Positions 2,866-43,539 are shown, counted from the stretch's first letter. The stretch is DNA of 47,511 bases from Candidatus Woesearchaeota archaeon (GCA_017609385.1 JAFCEA010000005.1:1-47511); one strand, 5' to 3'. Notes: generated by a model not told the origin, from the letters alone. A program made the numbers and translations.

Positions 2866-3429
2866 ATGAGATTAAAATACAAGACAGGTTATAAAATATG
2901 TGATGCCATGACAAAAAAGCCTGTTTCTGTTTCACCAGAAACTTCTATTGAAGAATGTGCTTTGAAGATGAGGGACAATCACATAGGAAGCCTTGTTATA
3001 ACAAAGGAGTCTAAACTTCTTGGCATATTGTCTGACAGGGATATTGTAAGGAGGGTTATTGCAAAAGGACTAAACCCTAAAGAATTAAAGGCTGAAGAAG
3101 TAATGATAAAAAAAGTCATAACAATTGGTCCTGAAAAAGATATTTATGATGCTCTCAAAAAGATGAAGGACAACGATGTAAGGCACCTTCCTGTTATGAA
3201 TAAAAAAGAGATGATTGGCTTGCTTACATTAAAAGACATACTCAAAATACAGCCAGAGTTATTTGAGCTAATGGTTGAGAAGTTTGAGCTGAGAGAAGAA
3301 TCAAGAAAACCTATATTTGGCGGCCCAATATCAGAAGGCATATGCGAGGCTTGCGGTTTTCCATCCACAAACTTAAGGGAAATTGAGGGCTCATTTCTTT
3401 GCACACGGTGTGCATCCAAAAAGCTTTAG
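2866..3429 (+). CDS. CBS-domain pair protein with C-terminal CxxC...CxxC zinc ribbon
   Basis: Two CBS repeats (MTKKPVSVSPETSIEECALKMRDNHIGSLVIT...; VMIKKVITIGPEKDIYDALKKMKDNDVRHLPVM...). The tail has CEAC and CTRC. Confidence 0.8.
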   Translation: MRLKYKTGYKICDAMTKKPVSVSPETSIEECALKMRDNHIGSLVITKESKLLGILSDRDIVRRVIAKGLNPKELKAEEVMIKKVITIGPEKDIYDALKKMKDNDVRHLPVMNKKEMIGLLTLKDILKIQPELFELMVEKFELREESRKPIFGGPISEGICEACGFPSTNLREIEGSFLCTRCASKKL

Positions 3430-3470: not shown

Positions 3471-3580
3471 GCGGGGGTAGCAAAGTCTGGTCAAATGCGC
3501 AGGACTTAAGACTAAATATAATTACAAGGCAGAAATCCTGTCTCTTAGTGAGTCCATGGGTTCAAATCCCATCCCCCGCA
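3471..3580 (+). tRNA. tRNA-Leu(UAA) with an anticodon-loop intron of about 24 nt
   Basis: Acceptor GCGGGGG/CCCCCGC plus A. Anticodon stem CAGGA (3500-3504)/TCCTG (3536-3540), loop CTTAAG..A with TAA at 3507-3509. Long variable arm TCTCTTAGTGAGTC. T arm ATGGG-TTCAAAT-CCCAT. Intron is about 3511-3534; I could not draw a clean BHB, so exact boundaries are uncertain. Confidence 0.88.
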
Positions 3581-6576: not shown

Positions 6577-6649
6577 GCCCCGGTGGCTTAGTGGCTATAG
6601 CGCCACCTTGGTAAGGTGGAGGTCGCGAGTTCAACTCTCGCTCGGGGCT
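6577..6649 (+). tRNA. tRNA-Thr(GGU), intron-less
   Basis: 73-nt cloverleaf. Acceptor GCCCCGG/TCGGGGC plus T. D arm GCTT-AGTGGCTA-TAGC. Anticodon stem CCACC/GGTGG with loop TTGGTAA. T arm GCGAG-TTCAACT-CTCGC. Confidence 0.9.
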
Positions 6650-6662
6650 TTTTTACACAACA

Positions 6663-6670
6663 TTTAAATA
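6663..6670 (+). promoter_or_regulatory. Putative archaeal TATA box (TTTAAATA) for tRNA-Val
   Basis: TTTAAATA lies 27-34 nt upstream of the tRNA-Val 5' end. Same octamer and spacing as at tRNA-Leu and tRNA-Pro. Confidence 0.45.
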
Positions 6671-6696
6671 TTAATTCTAATCTTATATTTTTAGTT

Positions 6697-6922
6697 GGGC
6701 CTGTGATCTAGTGGCTATGATGTCACCTTGACGATTTAAAAAAATCAAAATGGTGAATATCCCCGGTTCGAACAGCTTCTTGCTAAGCTGGCACGCAAAT
6801 GGTTACGCTCATTTGATACGCAAAGAGCGACATTCAATTGCTCTGCAATTGAAGTCCCTCACGCTCGCTAGCGCTCGCGAAAGTTAGAGCTCGCAAGTGC
6901 TTTGAAAGTCCGGGTGGGCCCA
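6697..6922 (+). tRNA. tRNA-Val(GAC) with two introns: 17 nt at 37/38 (6734-6750) and 136 nt at 59/60 in the T-loop (6773-6908)
   Basis: Removing both introns leaves a 73-nt cloverleaf. Acceptor GGGCCTG/TGGGCCC plus A. D arm ATCT-AGTGGCTA-TGAT. Anticodon stem TCACC/GGTGA with GAC at 6730-6732. T stem CCCGG (6762-6766)/CCGGG (6910-6914). Both introns are framed by 3-4-3 bulge-helix-bulge motifs (see findings). Confidence 0.85.
6796..6861 (+). repeat. 66-nt conserved intron module, copy 1 (inside the tRNA-Val T-loop intron)
   Basis: Identical at 65/66 positions to 43432-43497. Two predicted hairpins: cgctc/gagcg and ttcaattgc/gcaattgaa. Confidence 0.9.
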
Positions 6923-6925
6923 TGA

Positions 6926-6987
6926 CAGCTGCTTGCTCAGCTGGCACGCAGTCCAGCATAAAGCCGGACACGCTCGCTTTGCTCGCA
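6926..6987 (+). repeat. Partial paralogous copy of the tRNA-Val intron flanks, just 3' of the tRNA (GC-rich, non-coding)
   Basis: 6926-6950 cagctgcttgctcagctggcacgca versus intron 6773-6797 cagcttcttgctaagctggcacgca (23/25; the two differences are compensatory in a 6-bp hairpin). 6969-6987 cacgctcgctttgctcgca versus intron 6860-6880 cacgctcgctagcgctcgcga. Confidence 0.7.
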
Positions 6988-7032
6988 ACAAATGAAGAGG
7001 TAAATAACATCAGAAGAATAAAAGAGATTAAA

Positions 7033-8046
7033 ATGGAGATAGGTTTTTTTGAATTAAAACCTTGGGAAAAAGCCTACTTACAAAAGAAACTAAAGGGCTA
7101 TTCCTTAAAATTTTTTGAAGAACCTCTCAGCAACAATAATGTTTCTAAAGCAAAAAACTCTGATATAATCTCTGTTTTTATTTATTCAAAGATTAACAAA
7201 GATATCCTAAAAAAACTTCCGAAGCTCAAGATTATCACAACAAGGTCAACTGGCTTTGACCATATTGACCTAAAAGAGTGCAGTAAGAGGAAAATTATCA
7301 CCTGTAATATCCCTTATTACGGAGAAAACACAGTTGCAGAGCATACATTTGCCTTAATATTATCTTTATCAAGGAATATTCATAAATCATATGTAAGAAC
7401 CTTAAGGGATGATTTTTCTATTGAGGGTTTGACTGGTTTTGACCTGAAAGGAAAAACCATGGGCATTATCGGGGGAGGCCATATAGGACTGCATGTAGCA
7501 AAAATGGCTCGCGGTTTTGGAATGAATGTGCTTGTCTATGATATAAATAAGCAGAATTTCCTGGCAGAAGTAATTGGATTTAGTTATGCAAATCTTGACG
7601 AATTATTAAAGAAATCAGATATAATTTCATTGCATGTTCCATATAACAAGCACACTCACCACTTAATAAATAGGAACAATATAAAGAAGATAAAAAAAGG
7701 TGCAATCCTAATAAATACTTCTAGGGGAGGGGTGGTTGATACAAGTGCTTTACTGTATGCCCTAGAAAAGAAAATCCTAGGTGGAGCTGGTCTGGATGTA
7801 ATTGAGGGTGAAGAGCTAATAAAAGAGGAGCATGAGCTCCTTTATGAAACAGGAAATCCAGAGAAATGGAAAACCATTGTCAGGGATCACAAAATATTCC
7901 ATATGGATAATGTTGTTTTTACTCCGCATAATGCCTTCAATAGCAAAGAAGCATTAATCAGGATATTAGATACAACAATAGGGAATATAGAATCCTATTC
8001 TAATAAAAATCCTGTAAATGTTGTTAATTCACAAGAAAGGATCTAA
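7033..8046 (+). CDS. D-isomer-specific 2-hydroxyacid dehydrogenase (NAD-binding)
   Basis: Rossmann motif GIIGGGHIGLHVAKMARGFGMNVLVYD and the C-terminal FTPHNAF motif typical of the family. The track ORF starts at 6922, inside the tRNA-Val 3' end. The first plausible start is ATG 7033 (MEIGFFELKPW). Confidence 0.85.
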   Translation: MEIGFFELKPWEKAYLQKKLKGYSLKFFEEPLSNNNVSKAKNSDIISVFIYSKINKDILKKLPKLKIITTRSTGFDHIDLKECSKRKIITCNIPYYGENTVAEHTFALILSLSRNIHKSYVRTLRDDFSIEGLTGFDLKGKTMGIIGGGHIGLHVAKMARGFGMNVLVYDINKQNFLAEVIGFSYANLDELLKKSDIISLHVPYNKHTHHLINRNNIKKIKKGAILINTSRGGVVDTSALLYALEKKILGGAGLDVIEGEELIKEEHELLYETGNPEKWKTIVRDHKIFHMDNVVFTPHNAFNSKEALIRILDTTIGNIESYSNKNPVNVVNSQERI

Positions 8047-18697: not shown

Positions 18698-19961
18698 ACT
18701 ACCACCTCTTTTTTTAAAGTATTATGCTCTTTTAGCCTGAAGTTTATATCATTTAATATATTCATAAAGGTTATAAATGCATCATAAGGATTGTCATAAG
18801 GATTAAAATATTTATGCACATCACCATCATTGAACCACTTTGTGCACATGTAATAAAAATGGTCGCTTGTCTGAAGATTTCTCCAGTCATTAATAAGTTT
18901 TTTATCATTTGATTTTTTTATTGCTTCTTCTATAAGATATATCTCATTTATTGCTGATTTTTGCATGTCATTCCCATCCCATGCACTTGTATCTCTCTCA
19001 ATATCTGCCCATGAAACAGGGCTGTGAATATCTAGTTCTGCAACAGGATTATATGTTTTTACTGCCTCACTTGGAGTTTTGAAATCATTGTCAGGGTGCT
19101 TCAATAGCTCCTGAGGCAAGTATCTCAAAAAATTAAATATCCCTGTATCTGCCCACTGGTGCTCACCAAATGTCTCATAATCCATAAAAAGATTTACTAG
19201 ATTGCCATTTCCATTAACAGCATTAATCCAACTAGCATATTTATCAACTGTCAGCGGCCATTCCTTCCAGCTTCTGTCTGAAAACCTGAATGCAACATCA
19301 TCAGATAACTTGTAGTTTTTAAGCAAAAGCTTTATCCTTGATGTTGTTTTTGGCCTGTAAATAAAGTTGGGTGATCTCCAACCAAGTATATGATCAGCAC
19401 CTTCTGCCAGTATTCCCTTATAACCCATTGATTCAACAAAATTTGCAAGCTCATTATTATAGACAAGCTCTGTATTCCTGAAAATAGATGGATTTTGCTT
19501 AAACAAGCTTCTTATCTTTTTGTTATGCAAAATAACCTGCTCCTTAAATTCCTGTTTTGAATGCAGGAATGCAAGTGAATGATAGTATGTTTCATCAAGT
19601 ATTTCAACCTTGCCAGTATCAACTAGAATGCAAGTGAATGATAGTATGTTTCATCAAGTATTTCAACCTTGCCAGTATCAACTAGATCCTTAAATGATTG
19701 TAAAACATCTGGCATAAGCTCCTCAAATTGTTCCAAGATAACACCTGAAAAAGAATAGCTTATCTTAAATTCTTCATGCTTGTTAAGCAAATCAAGCATT
19801 AGCTCATTGGTTGGGAGATAACATTTTTCTGCAACCTTTTTTAGTATACCCAGATTCTTCTTCTTATTAGTATAACTATGATTCTTCCCAATCTCAAAAA
19901 CATTATATTCTCTCAGCCTATAAGGCTGGTGAACCTGGAAATAAAAACAAATTGATACCAT
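18694..19961 (-). pseudogene. Glycoside hydrolase family 57 (alpha-amylase/alpha-glucanotransferase-like), frame broken by a 59-bp tandem duplication
   Basis: The N-terminal fragment (19623-19961) starts MVSICFYFQVHQPYRLREY, the GH57 signature, and ends ...ETYYHSLAF*. The C-terminal fragment (18694-19530) continues the family. Deleting one 59-nt copy gives ...YYHSLAFLHSKQEFKEQVILHNKKIRSLF..., a 1209-nt open frame. Confidence 0.8.
19568..19685. repeat. Perfect 2 x 59-bp tandem direct duplication
   Basis: aatgcaagtgaatgatagtatgtttcatcaagtatttcaaccttgccagtatcaactag occurs at 19568-19626 and again at 19627-19685. Confidence 0.95.
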
Positions 19962-29123: not shown

Positions 29124-29249
29124 TTATCTTCTCCTTTTCTTCTTTGGTTTTTTCTTGACTTTTCTCTTGGCTTTCTTCTTAGCCTTTTTCTTAGGTTTTT
29201 TCTTGACTTTTCTCTTGGCTTTCTTCTTAGCCTTCTTCCTTGCTGCCAT
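29124..29249 (-). CDS. 41-aa polybasic protein (about 75% Lys/Arg) containing a 16-aa tandem repeat
   Basis: Hand translation: MAARKKAKKKAKRKVKKKPKKKAKKKAKRKVKKKPKKKRRR*. The ATG is preceded by gaggtga at a 7-nt spacing. Not in the ORF track (too short). The 48-bp repeat period runs 29146-29241. Confidence 0.5.
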   Translation of the reverse strand: MAARKKAKKKAKRKVKKKPKKKAKKKAKRKVKKKPKKKRRR

Positions 29250-43352: not shown

Positions 43353-43539
43353 GGGGCTGTAGGGTAGCTTGGTTCATCCTTTCTGGTTTGGGTTGTTAAA
43401 ACACAAGAAACCAGACGACCCCGGTTCAAACCAAATGGTTACGCTCATTTGATACGCAAAGAGCGACATTCAATTGCTTTGCAATTGAAGTCCCTCAAGT
43501 TCATTACGCTCACCAGTTGTGAAAGTCCGGGCAGCCCCA
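43353..43539 (+). tRNA. tRNA-Pro(UGG) with two introns: 17 nt at 37/38 (43393-43409) and 95 nt at 59/60 in the T-loop (43431-43525)
   Basis: The spliced product is a 75-nt cloverleaf. Acceptor GGGGCTG/CAGCCCC plus A. Anticodon stem TCTGG/CCAGA with TGG at 43389-43391 and G37. T stem CCCGG (43420-43424)/CCGGG (43527-43531). Both introns are framed by 3-4-3 BHB motifs. Confidence 0.85.
43432..43497 (+). repeat. 66-nt conserved intron module, copy 2 (inside the tRNA-Pro T-loop intron)
   Basis: 65/66 identical to 6796-6861. The single difference is t43479 versus c6843, in a hairpin loop. Confidence 0.9.

Follow-up and report, generated by a model that had tools for sequence, protein, structure and literature searches.

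The DNA directly behind the tRNA-Val(GAC) gene of Candidatus Woesearchaeota archaeon (GCA_017609385.1, JAFCEA010000005.1:1-47511) resembles the intron inside that gene, and this locus raises the question of what such a copy is and how it came to lie outside the gene. The whole 47,511-nt stretch was analysed and is called the window here; it is archaeal, with ~30% GC. An earlier reading of the bare sequence (the original prediction) had described the segment as a ghost copy of the intron flanks, and the name ghost is kept for positions 6925-6988. As judged from sequence comparison, the ghost is a complete copy of a modular repeat family, composed of a head H1 in its G-C allele, a central hairpin of type A and a tail. 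It probably represents, in trailer position, a non-coding modular repeat that derives from introns and is propagated and homogenised at the DNA level by recombination among copies; it is probably not spliced, and no independent function is assigned to it. The locus comprises the following features.

6697-6922, plus strand: tRNA-Val(GAC) gene with two introns (ARAGORN call after deletion of 6773-6908)
6734-6750, plus strand: canonical 37/38 intron, 17 nt
6773-6908, plus strand: T-loop intron of bulge-helix-bulge (BHB) type at position 59/60, 136 nt, GC-rich (from sequence, centroid fold and family covariation)
6773-6797, plus strand: head H1, T-A allele, CAGCTT-CTTGCT-AAGCTG-GCACGCA
6796-6822, plus strand: head-type hairpin H2, CAAATG-GTTACGCT-CATTTG-ATACGCA
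6825-6860, plus strand: D-type central hairpin, GAGCGAC-A-TTCAATTGC-TCT-GCAATTGAA-GTCCCTC
6863-6878, plus strand: tail motif of the intron unit, GCTCGC-TAGC-GCTCGC
6889-6902, plus strand: closing arm of the T-loop intron, GCTCGCAAGTGCTT
6903-6908, plus strand: TGAAAG end of the T-loop intron, its TGAA pairing with T54-G57 (TTCG, 6767-6770)
6909-6922, plus strand: 3' exon, TCCGGGTGGGCCCA, with discriminator A6922
6925-6988, plus strand: ghost, a complete trailer unit (nhmmer, profile from units outside the window)
6925-6950, plus strand: ghost head H1, G-C allele
6951-6969, plus strand: ghost A-type hairpin, GTCCAGC-ATAAA-GCCGGAC, with one A x C mismatch
6972-6988, plus strand: ghost tail, GCTCGC-TTT-GCTCGCAA

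At 6926-6950 (CAGCTGCTTGCTCAGCTGGCACGCA) the ghost repeats the first 25 nt of the intron (6773-6797, CAGCTTCTTGCTAAGCTGGCACGCA), as had been proposed, with 23/25 positions identical, or 24/26 when the preceding A is counted. The 25-mer pattern had exactly two matches in the window, where 0.00 were expected (100 shuffles). The copy had been placed 3 nt after the tRNA end; the repeat itself held, and the offset was corrected to 2-3 nt past A6922. Both differences fall within CAGCTK-CTTGCT-MAGCTG, on hairpin positions 6 and 13, which pair with each other, and convert one T-A pair of the 6-bp hairpin to G-C, in agreement with the single compensated base pair of the original prediction. Downstream, 6969-6986 (CACGCTCGCTTTGCTCGC) repeats 6860-6878 (CACGCTCGCTAGCGCTCGC) as a GCTCGC-N-GCTCGC tail, confirming with these limits a repeat that had been given as 6969-6987 and 6860-6880. 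The motif GCTCGC occurred nine times in the window (1.97 expected), five of them in this region. The 20-nt stretch between head and tail forms a hairpin, also as predicted, with the one A x C mismatch.

When the window was searched with nhmmer and a family profile built from units outside it, the ghost was matched over model positions 1-76 (E=1.9e-13), along with 6772-6878 (E=9e-16) and 43447-43513 (E=1e-4), and no further match was found in the window. The proposed paralogy of ghost and intron was thus upheld; the accompanying idea of an 'empty' outer element was not, since the ghost carries a standard A-type cassette.

The intron at 6773-6908 has the properties of a BHB intron: it lies within the gene, its removal restores the cloverleaf and its junctions form a BHB. 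ARAGORN returned tRNA-Val(gac) i(38,17) once it was removed, and neither ARAGORN nor Rfam detected the gene in the unedited window. The intron is composite, as had been suggested, with the order head H1, head H2, D hairpin, tail, closing arm and TGAAAG. In the centroid fold of the pre-tRNA, the T-stem, a TTCGA/UUGAA helix and a 3-nt bulge were formed, this 3' bulge of the BHB being made up of the AG of TGAAAG and T60, and H1, H2 and D folded as local hairpins. The 5' arm of the first head, AGCttCTTGC, pairs with GCAAGtGCT of the closing arm. The ghost lies past A6922, with 7/14 mismatches in the best 3'-exon match behind it and with no ...TGAAAG end, T-loop partner or closing arm; without T-loop partner, closing arm and second exon it cannot be spliced. 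No relevant family was found by Rfam 15 in 6600-7100 on both strands at E<=10 or at the gathering threshold, and inspection of the sense strand by eye revealed no convincing box C/D motifs, hammerhead-like cores or k-turns.

A modular repeat family and its introns at position 59/60

A genome scan with CTTGCTNAGCTGGCACGC as query, one genome per species, returned at least 118 loci, of which ~70 are low-GC Woesearchaeota or Nanoarchaeota contigs, often several per metagenome-assembled genome (MAG); the remainder, among the matches listed, come from high-GC bacteria and are due to chance. With GAAAGTCCGGGTGGGCCCA as query, 67 loci were obtained from metagenomes. More than 100 family copies were recovered in low-GC Woesearchaeota and Nanoarchaeota MAGs and metagenomes. 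Further copies, which it had been suggested to look for, were thus found well beyond the two matches in the window, and the similarity is not confined to this locus but is that of a multicopy family spread over many MAGs. Viral contigs scanned with the 18-mer gave two hits, both in phage contigs of 55-62% GC and both chance or unrelated. No published description of the modular family, or of intron paralogues outside exons, was found in open-access text. Five MAGs labelled 'uncultured Methanosarcinales archaeon' (CAYMFI01, CAYOHL01, CAYWLA01, CAZXME01 and JAFCBX01) have 31-39% GC and Woesearchaeota-type tRNA loci with family introns, and are probably mislabelled or mis-binned.

A unit of the family measures ~65-85 nt and has three parts: a head hairpin of 6-7 bp followed by RYACGCA, an exchangeable central hairpin, and a tail. 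Four head types (H1-H4, with intermediates) were distinguished, and these combine freely with about four central cassettes, whether the units are arranged in tandem, placed behind 3' ends or located between genes. Units of H1 + D + tail without H2 are common, and H2 + D + tail forms a complete unit of its own (forward at locus L128, inverted at L157). The modules read as follows.

Head H1: CAGCTK-CTTGCT-MAGCTG-GCACGCA
Head H2: CAAATG-GTTACGCT-CATTTG-ATACGCA
Head H3: CCAATGG-TTTCGT-CCATTGG-CACCGATGTG
Central hairpin A: consensus GTCCAGC-ATAAA-GCTGGAC
Central hairpin B: GGCGGGC-A-TTGAA..TTCAA-GCCCACC
Central hairpin C: GAGGATTTTGC..GCCAAATCCCC
Central hairpin D: GAGCGAC-A-TTCAATTGC-TTY-GCAATTGAA-GTCCCTC
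Tail: GCTCGC-N3-4-GCTCGCAA

Most family copies are BHB introns at tRNA position 59/60. The 99 unique introns are 45-318 nt long (median 103), and across MAGs the number of 3'-exon classes in which family cassettes occur is at least 15. In ~88/99 introns, the 4 nt that precede the terminal AG are paired with T54-57 at 4/4 positions, and across the 99 this helix covaries (A57:T in 41, G57:C in 32, G57:T in 18, A57:C in 2; TCCG pairs with CGGA). The 5' arm of the first head pairs with a matching 3' closing arm, so that introns beginning with H2 end in CCAATA or CAGTTG. No open reading frame (ORF) was found in family introns of up to 318 nt, which were checked for homing endonucleases and transposases. 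BHB structures are recognised by the archaeal tRNA splicing endonuclease; the family T-loop introns are therefore expected substrates of this enzyme, and their splicing is presumed from such recognition.

A second family intron in the window lies in a tRNA-Pro(UGG) gene, and the Val and Pro introns are 96% identical over 71 nt, which makes them shared introns of the Fujishima type.

43353-43539, plus strand: tRNA-Pro(UGG) gene, hand-parsed, with two introns (anticodon intron ~17 nt) and no trailer unit
43431-43525, plus strand: its T-loop intron, 95 nt, composed of H2, D hairpin, decayed tail and CCAGTTG TGAAAG

The copy of what the original prediction called the 66-nt module spans 43432-43502 (96% identical), and its D hairpin (43461-43496) differs from 6825-6860 in the loop only. 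This tRNA-Pro gene was detected by neither ARAGORN nor Rfam, and after removal of the T-loop intron ARAGORN mis-parsed it as Leu(aag). The introns that hide tRNA-Val and tRNA-Pro from both programs probably contribute to the 'missing tRNAs' of DPANN archaea. At 3471-3580 the window has a further intron-containing tRNA, Leu(UAA) by eye, found by Rfam but not by ARAGORN, with a canonical intron and no T-loop intron.

The pairing of the modules was examined across copies. Among 104 unique copies of H1, the dimorphic pair was T-A in 90, G-C in 11 and another combination in three (T-C, T-T and C-T, in diverged or spurious copies), and the 25-nt head was identical to consensus in 85/104. Family-wide, the head stems were CAGCTT/AAGCTG (96), CAGCTG/CAGCTG (21), CAAATG/CATTTG (25) and CAACTG/CAGTTG (1); 95.8% of cells in the arms were paired, and three of the six pairs had changed on both sides. 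The covariation score of the head was 0.419, compared with 0.168+/-0.045 in shuffles, none of 500 reaching it, and slid registers collapsed. A linked dimorphism was also present in the tail (GCTCGC..GCTCGC in 94, GCTCAC..GTTCGC in 20, intermediates in 3), which fits a local G-C to A-T pair. Collectively, these alignments indicate that the head and tail hairpins are real nucleic-acid structures. Since hairpin alleles are copied between loci, the compensatory counts do not represent independent events. A pairing of head with tail into a 'rod' was considered and rejected; it is the minimum free energy structure for simple units, but the dimorphic head and tail positions fit local hairpins instead.

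The units were more stable on the antisense strand in 65/67 cases (-31.6 vs -25.9 kcal/mol), and the antisense z score was lower in 58/67 (-3.04 vs -2.19). Mismatches of the A.C/C.A kind numbered 28 on the sense and one on the antisense strand, the sense ones becoming G.U on the antisense strand, where the tail GCGAGC-GAA-GCGAGC has tandem G.A pairs and a GAA loop. Folding of the ghost sense strand was not better than that of shuffled sequence (z +0.13 and +0.29). The original prediction had taken the compensatory change in the ghost as an argument for selection on RNA structure. The compensatory change stands, as part of the covariation of the head stem; it does not establish that RNA structure is under selection in the tRNA transcript, the G..C form being a recurrent copied allele and the units being more stable in antisense.

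Trailer copies and cassette turnover

A trailer unit directly behind the 3' end was present in 23/83 unique tRNA genes with a family intron, and all 23 genes are tRNA-Val or tRNA-Pro(CGG/GGG). By 3' exon, the trailers are distributed as follows.

TCCGGGTGGGCCCA, Val GAC/UAC/CAC: trailer in 15/26
TCTCAGCAGCCCCA, Pro CGG: trailer in 4/4
TCTCGGCGGCCCCA, Pro CGG/GGG: trailer in 3/4
TCCGGGCAGGCCCA, Val (L011): trailer in 1/1
Other 3' exon classes, various tRNAs: trailer in 0/49

In the comparison of tRNA-Val(GAC) loci, a trailer was present at all nine, the window plus eight orthologs. The composition of trailers varied.

Window: H1 + A + tail
L128: H2 + D + tail as in the window
L047: H3 + D + tail as in the window
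L126 and L151: H1 + C + variant tail
L168 and L136: H1 + D'
L176: H3 + D
L157: H2 + D + tail, inverted (unit on the minus strand, ~95% identical to window 6796-6881)

Over 900 nt of coding sequence (CDS), the window and L128 share 92% identity, and in the 45 nt before the ATG they share 91%. Their trailers are H1 + A and H2 + D, respectively, and their intron cassettes differ as well, while the tail GCTCGCTTTGCTCGCAA is common to both. Cassettes that have been swapped between near-identical flanks indicate that cassette replacement is fast relative to point substitution, and swaps between genomes 92% identical in the neighbouring CDS suggest that the process is recent or ongoing. The closest cassette set to that of the ghost, a variant H1 followed by GTCCGGC..GCCGGAC and GCTCGCTTTGCTCGCA, was found behind tRNA-Val(UAC) in L150, L178 and L179. 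Such ghost-like trailers fit an exchange between Val paralogues with a common 3' exon. For tRNA-Val(UAC) and tRNA-Val(CAC), the trailer position is filled in some genomes and empty in others; no target-site duplication was seen when filled and empty trailers were compared, and the copies have no consistent target tetranucleotide, only the preceding A being common to them. Alignment of relatives, which had been proposed as a way to find the 66-nt module present or absent as an insertion, showed a different pattern, in which whole cassettes are exchanged or inverted between orthologs and H2 + D + tail forms its own unit.

Origin of the ghost and competing explanations

Five of 27 unique trailer loci (L035, L086, L096, L081 and L101) retain a second copy of the gene's own 3' exon with 0-2 mismatches. 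It lies 92-139 nt downstream of the first and is preceded by a ...GAAAG-like unit end, and AT-decayed partial heads follow the last exon copy in duplication loci. At L035 (minus strand 774-1010), a tRNA-Val(CAC) gene lacking an intron precedes TTACAGC, H2, H1, B, a tail and CGAAAG, after which comes an intact second 3' exon, TCCGGGTGGGCCCA; the simplest explanation is precise loss of the intron from a gene already bearing the duplication. Tandem duplication of intron and 3' exon is easy between repeated units, and the five loci have the appearance that points to the intermediates expected of it. With no second 3' exon or GAAAG remnant behind the ghost (best match 7/14 mismatches, as above), a duplication origin of the ghost itself is argued only by analogy with these loci. 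The stretch 6995-7013 was considered as a decayed 3' exon and rejected in favour of a promoter, being conserved even where the downstream gene differs. In the window, no insert flanked by a 3' tRNA repeat was found of the kind that marks integrative-element att sites; an att-type 3' repeat is present at the 5/27 other trailer loci, with no integrase or cargo between the repeats.

According to the explanation that we favour, the unit is the building material of 59/60 BHB introns in many tRNAs of Woesearchaeota-type DPANN archaea. Inside a T-loop, the head is paired by the closing arm and T54-57 by ...TGAAAG; this creates the BHB, at which the endonuclease would remove the intron. The trailer lineage would most likely have begun, at the window as at other loci, with tandem duplication of the intron and 3' exon, the distal exon being lost later. 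In trailers and introns alike, the cassettes for head and central hairpin would have been overwritten repeatedly, an outcome seen in the swapped cassettes and presumably effected by recombination or gene conversion. The ghost would then be transcribed merely as tRNA trailer or spacer ahead of the promoter of the next gene. Several observations weigh against this explanation. Identity of the head in ~85/104 copies, together with the undecayed head and tail of the ghost, could mean purifying selection in place of recent conversion, and the terminal partial heads at L010, L086 and L096 are visibly decayed, unlike that of the ghost. A unit in every tRNA-Val(GAC) ortholog is not expected of junk, the stronger structure of the antisense strand is not accounted for by an intron-derived repeat, and the absence of a second exon or GAAAG remnant behind the ghost belongs here also.

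Alternatively, the units might be mobile, non-autonomous DNA elements of a REPIN, PATE or miniature inverted-repeat transposable element (MITE) kind, single-stranded hairpins moved in trans by a HUH/Y1-type or other enzyme, which became introns on landing in a T-loop and ghosts on landing behind a tRNA. We consider this possible but unlikely. Near-identical heads in many genomes, fast cassette turnover at orthologous sites and the inverted copy at one such site (L157) speak for mobility, as do intergenic copies in variable regions away from tRNAs and the presence of tRNA-Val(UAC) and tRNA-Val(CAC) trailers in some genomes and not others. So do the strand asymmetry of the structure, one strand having G.T/G.A pairs and a mini-hairpin of GCGAAGC type, and the same 26-mer beside true Methanosarcinales tRNA genes in the opposite orientation. 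However, target-site duplications and a consistent target tetranucleotide were lacking (only the preceding A was common), no transposase or integrase was found beside any copy inspected, introns of up to 318 nt contained no ORF, and head and tail, taken as terminal inverted repeats, reach a complementarity of only ~60%. Trailers are also limited to two tRNA families, which inheritance and conversion fit better than free transposition does. The inverted unit, the copies between genes and the asymmetry of the strands would all be compatible with a mobile element. In its most specific form, which we hold equally doubtful, a hairpin element moving as single-stranded DNA, with its structured strand antisense to the tRNA, would give a spliceable BHB intron on landing in the conserved TTCRA of a T-loop and ghosts by landing or duplication behind the gene, and may be exchanged between Woesearchaeota and Methanosarcinales. 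If true, it would be the first identifiable vehicle of archaeal tRNA-intron gain.

A functional role for the ghost as a cis-acting RNA element, in the tRNA-Val transcript or in the mRNA of the next gene, is improbable; a structured 5' end, or a signal for processing or for protein binding, would be examples. The unit stands behind every tRNA-Val(GAC) ortholog, the head and tail of the ghost are intact, and the head hairpin is kept by compensatory changes, as is the tail pair (G-C 94 vs A-T 20); the ghost is also probably transcribed, since no oligo-T terminator lies between the tRNA 3' end and ATG 7033. Set against this, head and hairpin at the same site are wholly different in close relatives and once inverted, and such replacement and inversion make a cis-acting function less likely. 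In addition, shuffled sequences fold as well as the sense strand of the ghost does (z +0.29), the A x C mismatch in the central hairpin of the ghost is uncompensated, a trailer unit is missing from about two thirds of the related tRNA genes, and there is no Rfam match. The arrangement put forward in the original prediction, an outer element running from the 25-mer to the tail, 'empty' downstream and 'filled' in the intron by a nested 66-nt module, is very improbable and, as stated, largely refuted. Head and tail do flank both copies, H2 is flanked on both sides by the direct repeat ACGCAAA (around 6796-6822), and the order H1, H2, central hairpin recurs in L046, L099 and L117; the ghost nevertheless holds a standard A-type cassette, and the 66 nt are no single nested insert but two separate modules, H2 and D, in a family where H1 + D + tail is common and H2 + D + tail is its own unit. 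Finally, the public JGI/NCBI gene call starts at ATG 6922, from which the frame is open, so that 6922-7032 would be the translated N-terminus of a dehydrogenase. This is scarcely credible. ATG 6922 overlaps the tRNA 3' end and the call runs across the ghost, whereas the Pfam 2-Hacid_dh match starts at residue 45 of the over-extended product (profile position 7), placing the start at M38, nt 7033. The ortholog at L047 has a stop in frame, 13 codons ahead of its ATG, another cassette occupies the site in L128, and in L157 the segment is inverted; codon-level conservation of an N-terminus was not found in orthologs. The original prediction that the ghost had been wrongly absorbed into the 6922-8046 ORF was accordingly correct, and these comparisons indicate that 6925-6988 is not coding.

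Among described phenomena, the nearest is found in Thermoproteales, where BHB introns have been transposed on a large scale between tRNA genes by an unknown mechanism (Fujishima et al. 2010 Mol Biol Evol 27:2233, as related in PMC4090602 and PMC4033280), and the next nearest is the model of tRNA disruption in Caldiarchaeum. To the extent that these accounts describe the Thermoproteales introns, the two systems have in common near-identical introns in different tRNAs (here Val and Pro, 96% over 71 nt), non-canonical positions, BHB junctions and a DNA-level gain deduced for both, by an unknown mechanism. On the same accounts, the present system differs in its lineage (DPANN/Woesearchaeota), in its long introns (median 103 nt) built from a small set of exchangeable hairpin cassettes, in the location of almost all of them at one site, 59/60, and in the copies outside exons, which are 3' trailers, intergenic or inverted. 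In the tRNA-Thr of Caldiarchaeum, the gene was disrupted through integration or recombination of a mobile element (Sugahara et al. 2012, PMC3293823). There, as here, duplicated tRNA fragments flank an insert and intron gain is tied to recombination; L035, L086 and L096 have the same order of complete tRNA, insert and second 3' exon. Unlike that case, the insert here is ~90-140 nt, non-coding and without a recombinase gene, and the window ghost has no second exon.

The bacterial REP/REPIN and IS200/IS605-derived PATE elements are hairpin units with a cognate RAYT/TnpA (Y1/HUH) transposase and a GTAG-type flank or target tetranucleotide. The present family resembles them in being short, GC-rich, extragenic, multicopy hairpins, often in tandem, with strand-specific structure and homogenisation within genomes. 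It differs in its archaeal hosts, in having neither a GTAG-type flank nor a defined target tetranucleotide, and in that most copies lie inside tRNA genes as predicted spliceable introns; no Y1/HUH transposase (RAYT/TnpA) gene adjoined any copy inspected, a result that applies to the neighbourhoods of these copies. MITEs have terminal inverted repeats and target-site duplications. Like them, the family is short, non-autonomous and multicopy, with presence and absence between relatives, but head and tail are imperfectly paired (~60% complementary), forming no clear terminal inverted repeats, and target-site duplications were not found.

The mechanism by which archaeal non-canonical tRNA introns are gained and spread is stated in reviews to be unknown (PMC4090602), and for DPANN archaea 'missing tRNAs' and an increased, partly undetected tRNA disruption have been noted (PMC5829648). 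One sequence takes four forms here: spliceable introns, tandem duplicates of intron and 3' exon, exon-less and sometimes inverted trailers, and intergenic copies. The family supplies evolutionary intermediates and may make archaeal tRNA-intron gain tractable; its turnover could be traced through metagenomic time series and put to the test with metatranscriptomes.

Neighbouring gene and copies away from tRNA genes

Between the ghost and the next gene lies a spacer that is conserved in all tRNA-Val(GAC) orthologs.

6989-7032, plus strand: conserved spacer, CAAATGAAGAGGTAAATAACATCAGAAGAATAAAAGAGATTAAA
7033-8046, plus strand: D-2-hydroxyacid dehydrogenase CDS from its true start (Pfam, orthologs)

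The spacer is conserved even in orthologs without the dehydrogenase gene, and is probably the promoter or 5' region of the downstream gene, outside the repeat. Several relatives (L151, L157, L168 and L176 were compared) have no dehydrogenase and instead an AI-2E-type permease gene directly after the spacer; at these loci the dehydrogenase thus presents itself as a presence/absence polymorphism behind a shared promoter-like region (TAAATAAC, ~25 nt before ATG 7033). Only the over-extended 374-aa product is in the public record, and exact look-up of the 337-aa protein gave nothing; family trailer units thus cause N-terminal over-extension of a neighbouring gene call.

A small number of units are found in variable regions at a distance from tRNAs, near toxin-antitoxin, AAA_14-DUF4143, Schlafen/AlbA_2 and PD-(D/E)XK genes. 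They adjoin C-terminal LamG fragments and C/A-rich repeats and are often antisense to the neighbouring gene. Such units or arrays were seen in L057 (minus strand 2957-3330), L087 (1-230), L114, L092 and L044, with further hairpins and C/A-rich sequence ('ccaaaaccaccc'). An apparent in-frame insertion of a unit into a LamG-like ORF in L044 was rejected, the long ORF being spurious and the unit intergenic beside a gene fragment. In true Methanosarcinales contigs (L014, L108, L040 and L055; 43-51% GC), CAGCTGGTCTTGCTCAGCTGGCACGC is followed by GCCATCC and a hairpin. In L014 (5187-5296) the antisense of CAGCTGGTCTTGCTCAGCTGGCACGC abuts the 5' end of tRNA-Leu(CAG), and a like arrangement was seen by eye at tRNA-Leu(CAG) in L108, where ARAGORN did not call the tRNA. 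L014 also has an H2-like hairpin (CAAATG..CATTTG) adjoining a tRNA 3' fragment.

Two further repeats were noted in the window. A perfect 59-nt tandem duplication at 19567-19684, with two 100%-identical copies, is a recent duplication or an assembly artefact. At 29125-29244, an array with a 12-nt period comprises seven overlapping 48-nt copies and probably codes for a Lys-rich repeat on the minus strand.

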